50,622 bases of DNA from an uncultured Candidatus Saccharimonas sp. (GTDB lineage: Bacteria > Patescibacteriota > Saccharimonadia > Saccharimonadales > Saccharimonadaceae): positions 1-50,622 of the forward strand of contig CAZNQY010000001.1 in NCBI GenBank assembly GCA_964575635.1, in the 5' to 3' direction. Under the pieces are notes generated by a model that was not told where the DNA came from, searched no databases, and was given only the letters and a program-made list of their open reading frames with translations. Within the stretch, counting starts at the first letter, position 1. Each line of letters begins with the position of its first letter. Of the stretch, positions 12,512-30,359 are shown piece after piece. Position numbers and translations under genes: made by a program.

Positions 12512-12604
12512 GGAGGGGTACCCAAGTGGCTGAAGGGGACGGTTTGCTAAATCGTTAGTTCGGAGAGATCTGAAGCGGGAGTTCGAATCTCCCCTCCTCC
12601 GCCA
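12512..12604 (+). tRNA. tRNA-Ser(GCU), type II, CCA encoded; attachment site of the adjacent element
   Basis: GGAGGGG-TA-CCC..GGG-ACGGT-TTGCTAA-ATCGT-(variable arm)-GGGAG-TTCGAAT-CTCCC-CTCCTCC-G-CCA. Confidence 0.9.
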
Positions 12605-14205
12605 AGAGAAACAGTGGAGTTATTTGACACCAAAACAAGAGACCTAAACGGCTCTCGCAAGGTGTAAGACTCCACTTTTTCTTTTCCAAAATACAATTTC
12701 GAAAAGATTTCCCTAATAATACGTTCCTTTTGAAAAATACGCCCATTGCGAAATGCTGGCAGTGTTTTTTCGATAATCGAATTAAACTCTTCTGGCGTTA
12801 GTGGTTTATGCTTTACAGTTTGAACTCTAAGCTTATTATTATTTTCGTTGATTTTGTTTGTAACAATGTTGATTTCATTGAGATTATCAGAGATGTCGTC
12901 ATTGGCTTTTTTAATAGCTCTATCGTCTGTTAGTTTACCTAAAGAAGCTCTAATCTCATCATTTTTACCGTCCAAGTGACTAATAATACTTTTAAACCGT
13001 TCTATTTCGCTTCTGAGGCGTTGTCTTTCGCCAGACGATAACTCCTTCGTTTCTTTCAAGTATGCCTCGTATGCGTCTTCTGTGAGCATAGAAATGACAC
13101 TTTCTATGGCTGGCTCTATGGCTTTAATGACGTCTCTCATTCTTGGATTTGCAGGATTTGAACGAGAACATATTTTATTCTTACAACTTAGATAGATTGT
13201 TGGTCTTGTGCCGTTTTTTCTGTGCTTCTTTATATTGGGAATATTTGGCAACATTGCCGTATCCTCTCGCCCGCATATTGCACAGTAAATCAAATCTTGT
13301 AAGGGTCTTCGCTCTCGATTATCTTTTGTCTTGGCTCTGTTGCTGTGCTCTGATAGCAACGACACTGCGCCAAAAGTAGCCTCATCTATTATTGGTATAA
13401 ATCCCAATCCTAATTCTCTAAGGTCTGTTTTTTGATTAGCTTGTGTTAGAACGCCCATATAAAAGGAGTCTGCGAACATCTTGCCTAGTGTGCTGACCGT
13501 TACTTTCATAATGCGGTAATTGCCATCTTCGGTGTAATACTTCGAATAATGATTATCGTTAAGGTATTTGGCAATTTTAGATAACATATCGCCATTTGCC
13601 CTCATTCCCCACGCTCGTTTTATCAAGCCAAAGTTATCATTGTAATCATCTGGCGTATAAATACCCTGTTTTTGAATATAACCGTGTTTTGGGACTCCAC
13701 CAGATAGACCTTCTTTAACTCTTTTTCTAACACCTCGTTTAACCTTATCTGACAAGTCGTCTGAATAGTGTTTCGCAAACACGAACAACATTCCTAACAT
13801 CATCTTGCCATTAGATGAATTGTCGAATTGATGAGAATGAAAACGAAGGTCTTTCATCTGACCCTTATCAAGCATATCTATAATCTTGCCAGCTTCGACC
13901 ATATTACGTGCCAAGCGGTCAGGGTGCCACGCTATAATGCCGTCTATTTTGCCGTCTTTAACTTCTTTCAGCAACGCCTTAAATAAAGGGCGATTATTAG
14001 CGGTTTTGGCTGATTTTTCTTCTCTGACCTCGCCAATAACCTTTAATTTGAGTTTTAGTGCTAGCTTACGGCAATCGTCTATCTGGTCATTTATAGACCG
14101 TATTTGTCTCCCAGATTCTTCTGACGATTTACGAGCATAAATCTTATACCTGTAAGTTTTAATTAGCTCTTCAAAGGGTGCTTCTTCGTATATGTCGTTA
14201 TTCAT
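12547..14205 (-). CDS. Large serine recombinase (integrase); the last ~16 codons read through the antisense of the tRNA
   Basis: Resolvase-type catalytic domain 'YARKSSEESGRQ...DRLAR', recombinase domain, Cys-rich zinc-ribbon region (CAICGR...CKNKIC) and a coiled-coil tail. The ORF crosses the att core at 12597-12605. Confidence 0.9.
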   Translation of the reverse strand: MNNDIYEEAPFEELIKTYRYKIYARKSSEESGRQIRSINDQIDDCRKLALKLKLKVIGEVREEKSAKTANNRPLFKALLKEVKDGKIDGIIAWHPDRLARNMVEAGKIIDMLDKGQMKDLRFHSHQFDNSSNGKMMLGMLFVFAKHYSDDLSDKVKRGVRKRVKEGLSGGVPKHGYIQKQGIYTPDDYNDNFGLIKRAWGMRANGDMLSKIAKYLNDNHYSKYYTEDGNYRIMKVTVSTLGKMFADSFYMGVLTQANQKTDLRELGLGFIPIIDEATFGAVSLLSEHSNRAKTKDNRERRPLQDLIYCAICGREDTAMLPNIPNIKKHRKNGTRPTIYLSCKNKICSRSNPANPRMRDVIKAIEPAIESVISMLTEDAYEAYLKETKELSSGERQRLRSEIERFKSIISHLDGKNDEIRASLGKLTDDRAIKKANDDISDNLNEINIVTNKINENNNKLRVQTVKHKPLTPEEFNSIIEKTLPAFRNGRIFQKERIIREIFSKLYFGKEKVESYTLREPFRSLVLVSNNSTVSLGGGGEIRTPASDLSELTI

Positions 14206-14310
14206 TGTTTTTCGAACTTTGATAAAAATTACTTATATAAATATCTATGTAAATGATTATATGCTAGTTTTTCGAATTATAACAAATCAAGGTTCTGTTA
14301 TATAATTAAG

Positions 14311-14436
14311 GGGTTCTAAGCAATTCACAATAGTAACGCCAGTAATGGTGTGATTTCTCTCGAGAATGAGCACCGTATAAACAACTGGAGAAATCCTGCT
14401 GTGAATGGCTTAGAACACCCTACGGTGCTCTTTTTT
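14311..14436 (+). promoter_or_regulatory. Structured leader or regulatory region in the element's divergent intergenic space
   Basis: Arm 14311-14329 pairs with 14400-14420 (~18-19 bp). A 10-bp stem 14368-14377/14421-14430 is followed by TTTTTT, just before the SD and ATG at 14466. Confidence 0.4.
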
Positions 14437-14465
14437 GTTTGTGCCGTATTTATAAAGGAGATGAT

Positions 14466-14789
14466 ATGGCGCTAAGAACGCAAGACTCAATACAGATTGA
14501 ACAGTTGAAAAGAAATAAAGATGCTCAAGAATTGACGGCGATGGCTCAAATGACAGATGAGCAACGCAATAATTATTTGAGACAAAGAGATGTCGTTAAA
14601 CAATTGCAGAAATGTAATGCCGTGATGGTTGGTTGGTGCTTCTTGTGCACTATCCTTGTCTTTACGTCTTTTGTATTTCCACCGCTACTGATTGCGGTGA
14701 TTTTTATTATCGTAGCTATTGTAAGAACCTATAAAAATAAATACAAACCGCTCAGGATTGAGCAGAAGAAGTTTTACGAGATTAAATAA
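14466..14789 (+). CDS. Small membrane protein of the element (C-terminal TM hairpin)
   Basis: AAGGAG 6 nt upstream of the ATG at 14466; the track ORF from 14439 starts at TTG. Hydrophobic 'VMVGWCFLCTILVFTSFVFPPLLIAVIFIIVAIV'. Confidence 0.55.
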   Translation: MALRTQDSIQIEQLKRNKDAQELTAMAQMTDEQRNNYLRQRDVVKQLQKCNAVMVGWCFLCTILVFTSFVFPPLLIAVIFIIVAIVRTYKNKYKPLRIEQKKFYEIK

Positions 14790-14865
14790 TCTCACGCATT
14801 AAGATGTGTAGATATCAGTCTGCCGAGATGTTATATAAAGCTGGCAGTAAAAGAATAGTAAAATT

Positions 14866-15306
14866 TTAGGTTGTTGGCTGTATTTCTAATGGCGTCAATG
14901 CTTTGGCGAGTTTGATTTGGTCGTCTAGTGATAAGTTGCTAAAGTTATTTGTTGGCAGTGGTTTTAATACAGTCTCCATATTCACTAAGCCTTTTTGCAA
15001 CGACTGAACTATAGCCACCAGTTCTCGTGTGGTCATTTGCTCCATATCTCGTTTCATAAGCTCGCTATAGGCTCTCGATAATAGCATATTTGTGATGTTT
15101 TTATGTTTTGTTATTACGTCTACGCCACTTGTGTCTCGCTCTAATTCCCACGATTTCTGTTTTGTATTTTCAATATCTTTCTGTCTTTCGTTGCATATCT
15201 TAATAATCGTAGGTTTACTAACTCCTGTTGTTTTTGCGATATCATCAAACGAGCAAGCGCCAGCCCTTAATGCCACTACCTCATTTGATAGTTCGAGACT
15301 TACCAT
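14866..15306 (-). CDS. HTH-domain protein of the element (possible regulator or directionality factor)
   Basis: N-terminal 'FDDIAKTTGVSKPTIIKICNE' helix-turn-helix. Starts 10 nt after the upstream ORF stop. Confidence 0.55.
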   Translation of the reverse strand: MVSLELSNEVVALRAGACSFDDIAKTTGVSKPTIIKICNERQKDIENTKQKSWELERDTSGVDVITKHKNITNMLLSRAYSELMKRDMEQMTTRELVAIVQSLQKGLVNMETVLKPLPTNNFSNLSLDDQIKLAKALTPLEIQPTT

Positions 15307-15315
15307 AACTATCTC

Positions 15316-15612
15316 CTATAAGTTAAAGTGTTTGTCTATGGCTTTTTTTACCATAGCTTCTACTCGTTTTTCGGCTCCTGCCGTATCGTTGTTATCCTCT
15401 ATTATAGTATATTTCGAAGAACTCGTCCTTAGTGTAATAGTTGTTCGTGTAATGGTATCGAAATCAAGAGTCACCTCTGTGCCATCATCAAGCGTAAAGG
15501 TGCTCGTGTCTTGTGATTCAGATGGTATATCGCTTATAGCGTCAATCAAGCCAGTCAAGTCTTTTACGACCTTGCCAGACAACTCCGTAAGCTCCTTTTT
15601 GTTATAACTCAT
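15316..15612 (-). CDS. Small acidic hypothetical protein of the element
   Basis: 98-aa ORF. Its start overlaps the stop of the reconstructed circular-form recombinase reading frame. Confidence 0.5.
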   Translation of the reverse strand: MSYNKKELTELSGKVVKDLTGLIDAISDIPSESQDTSTFTLDDGTEVTLDFDTITRTTITLRTSSSKYTIIEDNNDTAGAEKRVEAMVKKAIDKHFNL

Positions 15613-15761
15613 ACCTACATTTTATATCAAAGGTTTCTTTATGACTAAAAAGGCTATCTAATATGTTCCCAAATCTACGAATACCAGATATGACCTCATC
15701 TAGTGGTGTATGGTCGTTTTCGTTCAATAGAGTTTCGAAAATAGTATCTACTGCTCCGCCA

Positions 15762-15799
15762 AAATAAAACAACGACCCTTGTGGTCGTTATTTTATTTT
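15762..15799 (+). terminator. Conserved post-tRNA hairpin, displaced ~3.1 kb from tRNA-Ser(GCU) by the element
   Basis: 'aaataaaacaacgaccc ttg tggtcgttattttatttt', the same family as 2295-2330, 26003-26038, 26197-26235 and 30235-30270. Confidence 0.6.
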
Positions 15800-16192
15800 A
15801 CCAGAGTCGGGTCATTCAAACTCCCGCGGTTTTGCCCACGGCAAAACGAGCGCGGAGTTCGGCGCTGTGCAGCGAAATGAAAATGTGTTTACATATTTTC
15901 ATAAGCAAACAAAGGAGCGAGATTTATCGAGCGATATCTCCCCTATTTTGCAAGGCAAAATCAGCGGGAGTTCGGTGTAGCGAACGAAACAAAAGAAAGC
16001 GCGAAGCATTTTCTTTTGTAAGTAAGCGGAAGAGCCCAAAGGGCGATATCTCCGCTAATCCAAAGGCAAAACGAGCGCCGAGCAGCGAAGAAGCGAGATT
16101 TATCGAGCAATATCTCCCCTCATTTCCAAGAAAACACGAAACATTTTCTACTTAAGTAAGCGAACGGAAAAACCCAAAGAGTGATATCTCCC
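15800..16192 (+). repeat. tRNA-linked repeat locus E: inverted tRNA-Ser(GCU) T-arm copy (15800-15827) followed by four tandem modules (15852-15944, 15964-16056, 16066-16121 partial, 16131-16192 partial)
   Basis: Units begin '(gc)gggagttcgg' and end 'gatatctcccc', which are the two halves of the Ser(GCU) T-arm. The cores match those at the other four tRNA loci. Confidence 0.7.
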
Positions 16193-16210
16193 CCATTTAA
16201 TTGTTCAACT

Positions 16211-25774: not shown

Positions 25775-26196
25775 GGAGAGAAAGGGATTCGGTCACGTTC
25801 AGCGAACCCGGACTTCGACAATTAAGTGTATGTTTTTGTCAGAAATTTCACAGCAGAATAAAAGAAAGAAAGGGATATCGCCTTCGGCTCTTCCGCTCAT
25901 ACGTAAAAATATGTAGACACATTTTTTCTTAATTCGCTTCACCGAACCCTTGATTGCGCTAATAAATTAGCGCTCAAGGGTTAGAATCCCTTTCGAACAG
26001 TCAAATTAAAAAACGACCAGATGGTCGTCTTTTAATTTGGCGGAGAGAAAGGGATTCGGTCACAGATAATTTGCTCTGCAAATTTCCGCGACCCCGTCTC
26101 AACTTACTGCAAGCATAGCTTGCAATCAGTTTCCGACCTTGAGAACTGCCACAGGCAGTTCTCACCCTACCGGGTTCGAATCCATTTCTCGAAGAT
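25775..26196 (-). repeat. tRNA-linked repeat locus B downstream of tRNA-Ser(CGA): two displaced T-loop-to-3'-end fragments (25775-25796, 26038-26063), T-loop-position module (25869-25951), inverted T-arm copies (25975-26002, 26168-26196), hairpin (26003-26038), X-family segment (26064-26167)
   Basis: 'ggagagaaagggattcggtcac' occurs twice and matches the tRNA 3' end from the T-loop onward. The other pieces align to loci A, C, D and E. Confidence 0.7.
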
Positions 26197-26235
26197 AAAT
26201 TAAAATAACGACCACACGGGTCGTAATTTTAATTT
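26197..26235 (-). terminator. Conserved post-tRNA hairpin 3' of tRNA-Ser(CGA)
   Basis: 'aaattaaaataacgacc acac gggtcgtaattttaattt'. Confidence 0.6.
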
Positions 26236-26322
26236 GGCGGAGAGAAAGGGATTCGAACCCTTGATGGGTTGCCCCATACCGCTTTTCGAGAGCGGCCAGT
26301 TCAACCACTCCTGCATCTCTCC
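26235..26322 (-). tRNA. tRNA-Ser(CGA), type II, CCA encoded
   Basis: Reverse complement reads GGAGAGA-TG-CAGG..CTGG-CCGCT-CTCGAAA-AGCGG-(variable arm)-AAGGG-TTCGAAT-CCCTT-TCTCTCC-G-CCA. Confidence 0.88.
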
Positions 26323-26404
26323 AGATATTAGATATTTTAACAGATGGATTGTAAATTAAATAGGCGGTAGTGAAAATCCTCATCATCTATTTTAATAATG
26401 GATT

Positions 26405-26569
26405 CCGACAGGATATCGCCTACGGCTCTTCCGTTTGCTTGAAAAAAATGTTTCGCTGGACAGCGAACACTTTTTTCTTCGCATCGCTACACCGAATCTT
26501 ACGGTTCGGATTCGCTACGCGAATCTACCATAGAAAAAAGACCAGTTTTCACTGGTCTTTTTTCTATGG
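26405..26569 (-). repeat. tRNA-linked repeat locus C downstream of tRNA-Arg: module (26405-26498), inverted 3'-half copy (26498-26530), 20-bp-stem hairpin (26528-26569)
   Basis: Module flank 'ccgacaggatatc' matches the tRNA-Arg 'ccgacaggattcgaa'. The core aligns with the other copies and carries an extra internal hairpin. Confidence 0.65.
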
Positions 26570-30235: not shown

Positions 30236-30270
30236 AATTAAAAAATGACCAAAAGGTCATTTTTTAATTT
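30235..30270 (-). terminator. Conserved post-tRNA hairpin 3' of tRNA-Ser(UGA)
   Basis: 'aaattaaaaaatgacc aaaa ggtcattttttaattt'. Confidence 0.6.
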
Positions 30271-30359
30271 GGCGGAGAGGGCGAGATTCGAACTCGCGGT
30301 GCCTTTTACAGCACGACGGTTTTCAAGACCGTTACCATAAACCGCTCGGCCACCTCTCC
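30270..30359 (-). tRNA. tRNA-Ser(UGA), type II, CCA encoded
   Basis: Reverse complement reads GGAGAGG-TG-GCCG...-ACGGT-CTTGAAA-ACCGT-(variable arm)-GCGAG-TTCGAAT-CTCGC-CCTCTCC-G-CCA. Confidence 0.88.

Follow-up and report, generated by a model that had tools for sequence, protein, structure and literature searches.

The stretch of DNA analysed here, which we call the window, comprises 50,622 nt of contig CAZNQY010000001.1 (assembly GCA_964575635.1) from an uncultured Candidatus Saccharimonas sp., and carries a 3,157-bp integrative element (12606-15762) in the 3′ end of a tRNA-Ser(GCT) gene, with a 9-bp direct repeat at both ends. The recombinase gene of this element, int, runs through its own attachment (att) core, and appears to have one 3′ end when the element is integrated and another when it is a circle. 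The argument depends on the following features of the locus:

12512-12604, + strand: tRNA-Ser(GCT), the integration target, intact after insertion (ARAGORN; Rfam tRNA, 51.3 bits)
12597-12605: attL core CTCCGCCAA, made up of the final 8 nt of the tRNA (CCA included) and 1 nt more
12547-14205, - strand: recombinase gene in the integrated state, encoding Int-S (552 aa; residues 1-536 element-encoded, 537-552 antisense tRNA)
14866-15306, - strand: gene for the helix-turn-helix (HTH) protein HTH146 (146 aa), third gene of the predicted circular-form operon, 9 nt after orf98
15316-15612, - strand: orf98, ATG at 15612-15610, with an 11-nt overlap (ATGAGTTATAA) with the end of full-length int
15602-15754, - strand: orphan 3′ end of int, 50 codons (AVDTIF...KCRYEL) and a stop, continuing the int frame in the circular element only
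15754-15762: attR core CTCCGCCAA
15763-15806, + strand: native terminator of tRNA-Ser(GCT), displaced by the insertion; B′ side of attB and outer element edge (hairpin 15771-15789, then a T-run)
Predicted attP junction of the element: CTACTGCTCCGCCAAGAGAAAC
Predicted empty site of the element: CCTCCTCCGCCAAAATAAAACAACG

The element and its target tRNA gene

The core CTCCGCCAA is the sole exact repeat of at least 9 nt between the two element ends, and it also bounds related elements at two other loci (L175 and L176). It is found seven times in the window, where 0.17 copies would be expected, an excess that is due to its forming the 3′ end of all four tRNA-Ser genes. Joining the tRNA end to the right flank in silico gives an attB reading GAATCTCCCCTCCTCCGCCAAAATAAAACAACGACC...GGTCGTTATTTTA, and the layout of this site, with CTCCGCCAA followed by an AAWTAAAA-hairpin, matches that of the window's three other, unoccupied tRNA-Ser genes. 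Because the tRNA end and right flank mirror these unoccupied genes, we take the 3,157 bp between the cores to be an insertion. As in tRNA-targeting islands of the Islander type, the insertion lies at a tRNA 3′ end and a 9-bp fragment of the tRNA is repeated at 15754-15762; as expected for a serine integrase, the short shared core lies between dissimilar arms, the flanks being unrelated. Dyad symmetry of attP centred on the core is weak (12/24 positions) and was not used as evidence. Rfam identified nothing within the element besides the tRNA.

Judged from its domains, the recombinase is a large serine recombinase (LSR, or serine integrase). Pfam places a Resolvase catalytic domain (PF00239, E=5e-26) at residues 22-166 and a Recombinase domain (PF07508, E=1.9e-5; 25.3 bits against a cut-off of 21.1) at residues 194-281, while a sequence search of the PDB matched the catalytic domain only (3g13, the N-terminal domain of a conjugative transposon recombinase, E=3.9e-6). 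The zinc-ribbon family PF13408 scores only 15.9 bits, under its cut-off of 25.3; a zinc-ribbon with an inserted coiled coil is nevertheless recognisable from four cysteines (C308, C311, C341 and C346) that are invariant in our alignment A1, and from the AlphaFold model of the 580-aa homologue P0029 (mean predicted local distance difference test, pLDDT, 83.8), where a beta-ribbon leads into long antiparallel coiled-coil helices (384-455) and the chain then returns to beta-strands (492-507). The domains found are those of serine recombinases only, and not those of the tyrosine recombinases that serve Mx8-type phages and the usual Islander-type islands. The last conserved motif, EPFxxL, lies at residues 518-523, and the P0029 model is disordered from residue 519, save for one low-confidence helix at 542-560.

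One gene with two 3′ ends

The first-pass annotation of the window had proposed that the recombinase frame passes through the att core and ends after 16 codons that are simply antisense tRNA. This is reproduced by the open reading frame (ORF) running from 14205 to 12547 on the - strand, whose 552-aa product crosses the left core as ...NSTVSLGG-GGEIRTPASDLSELTI before its stop. The companion claim, that joining the right end to the left through the shared core lets the same frame continue for 50 stop-free codons, also held when the circular junction was re-translated in silico: the result is a 586-aa ORF, Int-L, which reads ...SLGG-AVDTIFETLLNENDHTPLDEVISGIRRFGNILDSLFSHKETFDIKCRYEL and stops at 15602-15604. 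Any crossover inside the 9-bp core keeps the reading frame. The crossover falls at the Gly-Gly of residues 535-536, 11-13 residues past the last conserved motif and 50 codons before the stop, and since the conserved sequence ends before it, Int-S would keep every canonical LSR domain. The conserved domains thus all lie upstream of the crossover and integration does not fragment the enzyme as it does in integrases of the archaeal SSV type. The arrangement is instead that seen in phage Mx8, with the attP core within the int ORF and a 50-aa tail swapped upon integration for 16 residues of antisense tRNA.

A few details of the junction differ from the earlier description. The tail was said to have no internal Met, and thus to be no ORF of its own; it indeed lacks a Met but contains an in-frame TTG, and a mechanical 56-aa ORF started from TTG can be drawn at 15602-15772 (- strand). 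We also weighed, and rejected, the reading of the tail as a small gene in its own right that starts in the flank, as the candidate starts lie outside the element and differ between copies. The stop of int had also been described as overlapping the ATG of orf98. The two genes do overlap, by the 11 nt ATGAGTTATAA, though the stop and ATG themselves do not touch, and the gap between orf98 and the HTH gene is 9 nt rather than 10. The overlap suggests that int and orf98 are translationally coupled.

An open frame of this length is in itself weak evidence of coding, since at least 50 open codons follow 18% of all window positions; the tail is free of stops in 1.3% of shuffles of its own sequence. 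What makes the case solid is homology, the pattern of substitutions and synteny. We inspected the C-termini of the best 120 of 320 homologues. Most of these cover only ~87-92% of the 586-aa query, and by eye nearly all end a few residues past the conserved motif, with endings such as GGGWEIRTPAPG, GRGDRT, GGGGWT and SLGWG. Because these endings are antisense tRNA 3′ ends, the short homologues are better read as integrated forms of the same arrangement than as natural short ends. Three homologues have long tails that do not derive from tRNA, and one of them, P0029, covers 100% of the query and so fits the circular form. Aligned on its own, the 50-aa extension matches P0029 residues 528-573 (E=3e-8) at 37% identity, and this match is collinear with that of the remaining sequence.

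A profile built from ten tails, some natural and some reconstructed (A2), has an invariant Glu (E543 in Int-L) ~7 residues past the Gly of the crossover and finishes with an aromatic Y-E-[LY]. Searching with this profile retrieved natural proteins that contain the zinc-ribbon end and the tail in one continuous chain (P0121 and P0123-P0128). Five of them (P0123, P0124, P0125, P0127 and P0128) match in-silico junctions of the L010, L016 and L028 types, which represent three other subfamilies, while P0121 and P0126 carry the type of tail found in P0106, an intact recombinase described below. Substitutions point the same way. Compared with L174, an integrated copy at the equivalent locus, the tail has six differences, of which five are synonymous and one is non-synonymous in the predicted frame, against 1:5 in the other two frames (binomial p ~0.005 if ~25% of random changes are taken to be synonymous). 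When four distinct copies, all integrated, are compared (window, L174, L175 and L176/L177), variable sites are distributed 5/2/12 by codon position, with no stops or frameshifts. From these comparisons, the 50-aa tail appears to be a real, conserved coding sequence that evolves roughly like the rest of the protein.

Relatives, downstream genes and cargo

P0029 is encoded on a JGI contig (L001) of 4,669 bp that has an exact 122-bp terminal direct repeat and no tRNA; because of this repeat we take it to be a circle of 4,547 bp. The first-pass annotation had predicted that the excised form would encode a compact operon of int, orf98 and the HTH gene, and the circular relative has this same gene order: int580 is followed by orf109 (MSYNK..., with the same 11-nt ATGAGTTATAA overlap) and by an HTH_7-like protein of 141 aa (HTH141). 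The products of orf98 and orf109 are homologous (E=2e-6), and an exhaustive phmmer search places orf98 within a small family of orphan proteins of 85-97 aa. HTH146 has weak N-terminal matches to HTH_Tnp_ISL3, HTH_7 and TetR_N in Pfam and to a DNA-invertase HTH in PHROG, and is syntenic with HTH141 in L001 and with HTH136 in L005. As a separate observation, the HTH protein of L001 (4087-4512) matches the PHROG 'terminase small subunit' family phrog_4102 (E=6e-16), a match that HTH146 lacks; some of these mini-elements might therefore be satellites of phages.

Closer copies are integrated at the ends that can be seen. L174 matches the right end of the element with 86% identity (tail 96%, orf98 89.5%, HTH gene 84.7%) and lies at the equivalent locus, where the flank outside the element is only 72% identical. 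L175 (element of 4,537 bp) and L176 (3,735 bp) have different cargo, and the same cores and operon were reconstructed for both; the circles built from them in silico carry 586-aa ORFs with 95% and 91% identity to that of the window. On the two contigs (L175, 1-4588; L176, 1570-5313) a backbone of int, tail, orf97 and HTH146 is shared together with a conserved control region, while the cargo comprises ORFs of 107, 375 and 101 aa in L175 and one of 254 aa in L176, giving the picture of a modular cargo slot. The corresponding features of the window element, and a hairpin at its left end, are:

14206-14465: divergent control region between int and orf116, with a hairpin of ~115 nt (14309-14421) and a promoter-like site on each strand
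14466-14789, + strand: cargo ORF orf116, a predicted small membrane protein (107 aa from ATG, 116 aa from an upstream TTG)
12604-12685, + strand: long hairpin followed by a U-run, within the 3′ coding region of int, adjoining the core and covering an attP arm

Most of the control region (14206-14435, ~230 nt) is ~100% identical in the window, L175 and L176, where orf98 and the HTH gene are only ~80-90% identical. It contains promoter-like sites on the - strand (TTGTTA-18-TATAAT, 14285 to 14256) and the + strand (ATAACA-16-TATAAT), and a hairpin of ~115 nt with 23-nt arms (14307-14329 and 14400-14422), a folding free energy of -45.8 and a z-score of -4.8 on the + strand; a second fold z-score is -4.1. 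A terminator-like stem (GAGCACCG...CGGTGCTC and T6) follows this hairpin, just before the orf116 ribosome-binding site. The region, in which Rfam gave no match, might represent a leader or small RNA, an operator region, or an origin for replication or transfer. The cargo ORF belongs to no significant Pfam or PHROG family and is a variable module, being replaced or joined by other cargo in L175 and L176; from its size and position, the 107-aa ORF of L175 is probably its counterpart. The left-end hairpin (inverted repeat I12) has a minimum free energy of -31.6 kcal/mol (z = -5.6; none of 200 shuffles folds as well), and may act as a substitute terminator for the tRNA transcript when the element is integrated. 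If it does, a single stretch serves as protein coding sequence, attP arm and terminator.

The arrangement extends well beyond these copies. Among loci from genome and metagenome collections, 31/39 and 43/64 full-length relatives have a 3′ end that runs into antisense tRNA, the acceptors being tRNAs for Pro, Ser, Leu, Gly, Asp, Met, His, Gln, Lys, Val, Glu, Trp, Tyr, Asn and Ala. The hosts are mostly of the Candidate Phyla Radiation (CPR, or Patescibacteria), with some metagenome-assembled genomes labelled Omnitrophota or Planctomycetia; judged by the labels of its homologues, the window element, too, probably has a CPR host, of the Saccharimonadia. Circles guided by the repeats restore tails of 39-50 aa at seven loci (L005, L010, L016, L020, L028, L046 and L052). 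At many distant loci the rebuilding of attR failed or was ambiguous, with a core under 8 bp or the far end off the contig, and junctions were counted only if natural contiguous proteins or homology of the tail later bore them out. L005, the closest genome representative, uses the same tRNA-Ser(GCT) with a 12-bp core and has the same tail motif (EEVMQGLRQFKAMLSTI); its reconstructed operon has an ATGA overlap with orf82, followed by HTH136, which by eye is similar to HTH146. Scanning IMG/VR with the family alignment gave only five distant relatives, none of them informative, and the metagenome scan, where relatives were at most 35% identical, gave no further circles. Four genomic copies that seemed long-tailed were set aside: L009 and L011 have integrated into tRNA-Met in the ordinary way, the tail of L013 (no tRNA called) is of the same kind, and L057 has a broken ORF.

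Tandem arrays provide a further setting in which the tail is found joined to the gene. In L004 (9959-15178) an intact int with its tail (P0106) is followed by orf90, a 129-aa ORF, cargo, and a second LSR gene reading into tRNA-Pro, and the P0106 junction and the tRNA junction share a 7-bp core, CTAGTCG. A related case is found in L171-L173, where a 139-aa C-terminal remnant of int with its tail (P0128) lies ahead of another element. It appears that when a second element enters an occupied tRNA, its tail end completes the truncated gene of the older copy in frame.

Other observations concern the surroundings of the element in the window. The tRNA-Ser genes end with CTCCGCCAA at 2329-2337, 26234-26242, 30269-30277 and 12597-12605, a similar AAWTAAAA-hairpin terminator follows each, and the three unoccupied ones look like potential secondary attB sites for the element family. 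A second copy of the final ~22 nt of tRNA-Ser(CGA) (26235-26322), with a terminator hairpin of its own, lies 197 bp downstream of that gene (26037-26057, - strand) and resembles a scar of the attL/attR type, or what is left of a lost element. Dispersed repeats of ~16-45 nt, families D2-D8, occupy the intergenic space that follows attR (15800-16200, and also ~26370-26560), and Tandem Repeats Finder reports no array; by eye, similar sequences occur near the tRNA-Ser(CGA)/tRNA-Arg cluster and in the L174 flank. Finally, an ORF of 503 aa (483-1994, - strand), which by eye resembles an HsdM-like methyltransferase of type I restriction-modification systems (no family search was made), lies just downstream of the 3′ end of tRNA-Ser(GGA) (2330-2419) and may be another tRNA-associated island.

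A proposed integration-state switch and its precedents

We favour, with moderate confidence, the explanation that the element has two state-specific recombinases and that integration itself switches between them. The architecture on which this is built, with attP inside int and two coding states, we consider highly probable. The element would have been placed in tRNA-Ser(GCT) by its own LSR. Only a circle, or the inner member of a tandem array, would give Int-L (586 aa), whose gene would be coupled in translation to orf98 and transcribed together with the HTH gene from the int promoter. The integrated copy would make Int-S (552 aa), with the catalytic, recombinase, zinc-ribbon and coiled-coil domains and 16 antisense residues, and the orf98-HTH pair would then lie 3 kb from int, behind the bidirectional tRNA terminator and a second predicted terminator (16241-16222). 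A naive recipient holds only the circle, so Int-L would have to perform the integration of attP with attB; a single integrated copy makes only Int-S, which would therefore be the enzyme available for excision between attL and attR. If so, the C-terminal swap and the break in the operon would together constitute an integration-state switch, which most likely biases or regulates directionality. A functional switch of isoforms is likely on logical grounds, and would fit the life cycle of the element. Whether Int-L and Int-S really differ in function is, on the sequences, close to an even call that leans slightly to the negative.

Several observations weigh against this explanation. Nothing in the present analysis supports differing activities of the two forms, and the structural model offers no hint of a role for the tail, which in P0029 has a pLDDT of 35-58 and is undocked on the rest of the protein. 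The exact 22-nt attP junction has no match in JGI metagenome contigs and no circular form of this exact element was found, no empty attB of a relative was retrieved, and in the clade comprising the window and L174-L178 every instance that reaches an element end is integrated. The promoter and terminator calls are consensus matches only, and a weak promoter-like site inside the tail (15647 to 15619) could drive orf98 and the HTH gene alone. The orf98 product has no Pfam or PHROG family, and its AlphaFold model (pLDDT 66) gave nothing below E=0.5 in a Foldseek search against the PDB; neither to it nor to HTH146 could these searches assign a function.

The arrangement could conceivably be a coincidence, in which a chance repeat adjoins a chance open frame, the gene ends naturally in tRNA antisense and 15605-15753 is non-coding. 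That the 9-mer is simply the tRNA-Ser 3′ end, with its seven copies in the window, and that open stretches as long as the tail are frequent there, would make such a coincidence easier. It is nonetheless refuted for practical purposes by the homology of the tail to a natural full-length protein, the relative on a circular contig with the same operon, the bias to synonymous substitutions, the three elements with different cargo and the same cores in which 586-aa ORFs are restored, and the native terminator directly after attR. A second explanation takes the architecture as real and sees attP in the 3′ end of int as a by-product of compaction, small elements being under pressure to keep int and attP as an inseparable module; the tail would give Int-L some generic benefit (stability, or the coupling to orf98), both forms would have the same directionality, and a separate factor (the HTH protein, orf98 or the host) would be in control. 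We consider this possible though not probable. The elements are indeed very small (3.2-4.5 kb), a review of archaeal integrases treats an att site within int as a compact, exchangeable module (PMC8371274), and the crossover lies in what is modelled as a disordered linker, so that swapping the end may be structurally harmless. Such a by-product would not readily account for a tail that is under coding constraint and is conserved, with its invariant Glu and aromatic C-terminal end, across subfamilies with different tRNA targets, nor for the conserved overlap with the start of the next gene; the extreme C-terminus of SPbeta Int is, moreover, implicated in directionality.

A third explanation, that integration is a suicidal lock-in as in SSV, with Int-S inactive and excision dependent on Int-L supplied in trans by a circle or by the inner gene of a tandem, seems to us clearly improbable. 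It would fit the integrated state of all close-clade members just mentioned, the copy at the same locus whose flank is only 72% identical, as might follow from long residence, and the tandem arrays with an intact inner int (P0106 in L004) or an int remnant (L171-L173). Int-S, unlike the products of SSV-type splits, retains every canonical LSR domain, however, and Pfam and PHROG searches found no recognisable replication gene in the window element that could maintain a helper circle. Additionally, the int ORFs are intact in integrated copies across a large and diverse family, and in the close clade they are full-length at 91-95% identity, which argues for selection on the integrated gene.

Within the preferred explanation of an integration-state switch, one more specific form makes the tail a built-in determinant of directionality, a tethered amphipathic helix acting on the zinc-ribbon/coiled-coil hinge in the manner of a recombination directionality factor (RDF) or anti-RDF, possibly together with orf98. 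This form we regard as rather doubtful. For the broader idea of a switch in directionality there is support from known integrases: an extreme C-terminal element of the SPbeta integrase is reportedly part of a 'molecular toggle switch', in work attributed to Abe et al. in 2021. An effect on directionality is plausible because the position of the tail is like that of the SPbeta integrase C-terminus beside the coiled-coil hinge: in structures of SPbeta Int, the C-terminus repositions and contacts the RDF there (bioRxiv 10.1101/2025.01.03.631226). RDFs fused to the C-terminus of Int are functional (PMC5737554). If the tail were itself a built-in determinant, a large family of tRNA-targeting serine integrases would set direction by a switch of isoforms and not by separate expression of an RDF; Int-L would integrate, Int-S would excise, and a tandem insertion would 'heal' the gene of the older copy.

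The closest precedent is provided by the myxophages Mx8 and Mx9, which have tyrosine integrases; the integration target of Mx8 is likewise a tRNA gene. The likeness lies in an attP within the int coding sequence and a new C-terminus upon integration: as described in one paper (PMC6070905, citing Tojo 1996 and Magrini 1999), integration of these phages creates a new 3′ end and the prophage integrase has a different C-terminus, a change that is there interpreted as regulating integrase activity and excision. Mx8 has a tyrosine recombinase in a phage of ~50 kb, whereas here an LSR acts in a 3-kb element without phage genes, the swap also breaks a translationally coupled operon, and the arrangement is common to a large CPR family. 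A second precedent is found in the 'suicidal' integrases of the archaeal SSV type, whose genes contain the att site and are fragmented upon integration, an arrangement described in the archaeal review as exclusive to archaea (PMC8371274). These (SSV1, pTN3, pT26-2) are tyrosine recombinases, and their splitting is thought to preclude excision without an intact copy; in the bacterial serine recombinase described here only a 50-aa tail is lost and all domains are kept.

In the integration-dependent immunity of mycobacteriophages such as BPs and Brujita, which use a tyrosine integrase, attP lies inside the repressor gene and integration removes a degradation tag. The first-pass annotation had pointed to this system, and it is similar in that attP is inside a gene and integration alters a C-terminus and a regulatory state. 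Here it is the recombinase itself that is split and not a repressor, the HTH gene being intact in both states. No tag-like end was recognised on the recombinase, although no search aimed at tags was made. Canonical LSRs (those of phiC31, Bxb1 and A118, and SPbeta SprA, with their separate RDFs) share the domain architecture and the short attP/attB core, and their C-terminal end likewise adjoins the zinc-ribbon/coiled-coil hinge, at which direction is determined; they usually target protein-coding genes, in contrast to the tRNA 3′ ends used here, and to our knowledge their attP is intergenic and the enzyme unaltered by integration. For TnpX of Tn4451/Tn4453, expression of an LSR does depend on the circular or integrated state, as the circle junction assembles a promoter, whereas here it assembles a coding sequence and an operon.

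A survey of LSRs in isolate genomes makes no mention of tRNA or of LSR genes split by their own attP (PMC10083194), and tDNA islands are described in another paper (PMC4383910) as catalysed by tyrosine integrases. We found no description of a self-split LSR gene in the literature on serine integrases or Patescibacteria, our coverage of which was incomplete. The splitting of a gene by its own attP is thus known for tyrosine integrases, and the element described here is its serine-recombinase, bacterial counterpart, set against an arrangement that the recent review calls exclusively archaeal.

Serine integrases are major tools of genome engineering, and the control of their direction is an active structural question. 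A natural, state-dependent C-terminus would allow the part played by the extreme C-terminus to be tested with simple genetics, and might yield pairs of integrases that run in each direction without a separate RDF. As databases hold mostly the truncated isoform with its meaningless tRNA-antisense tail, surveys and designs based on these LSRs would use the wrong protein. More generally, the family reveals common and compact mobile elements with variable cargo that target tRNA genes in CPR bacteria, whose mobilome is poorly known.

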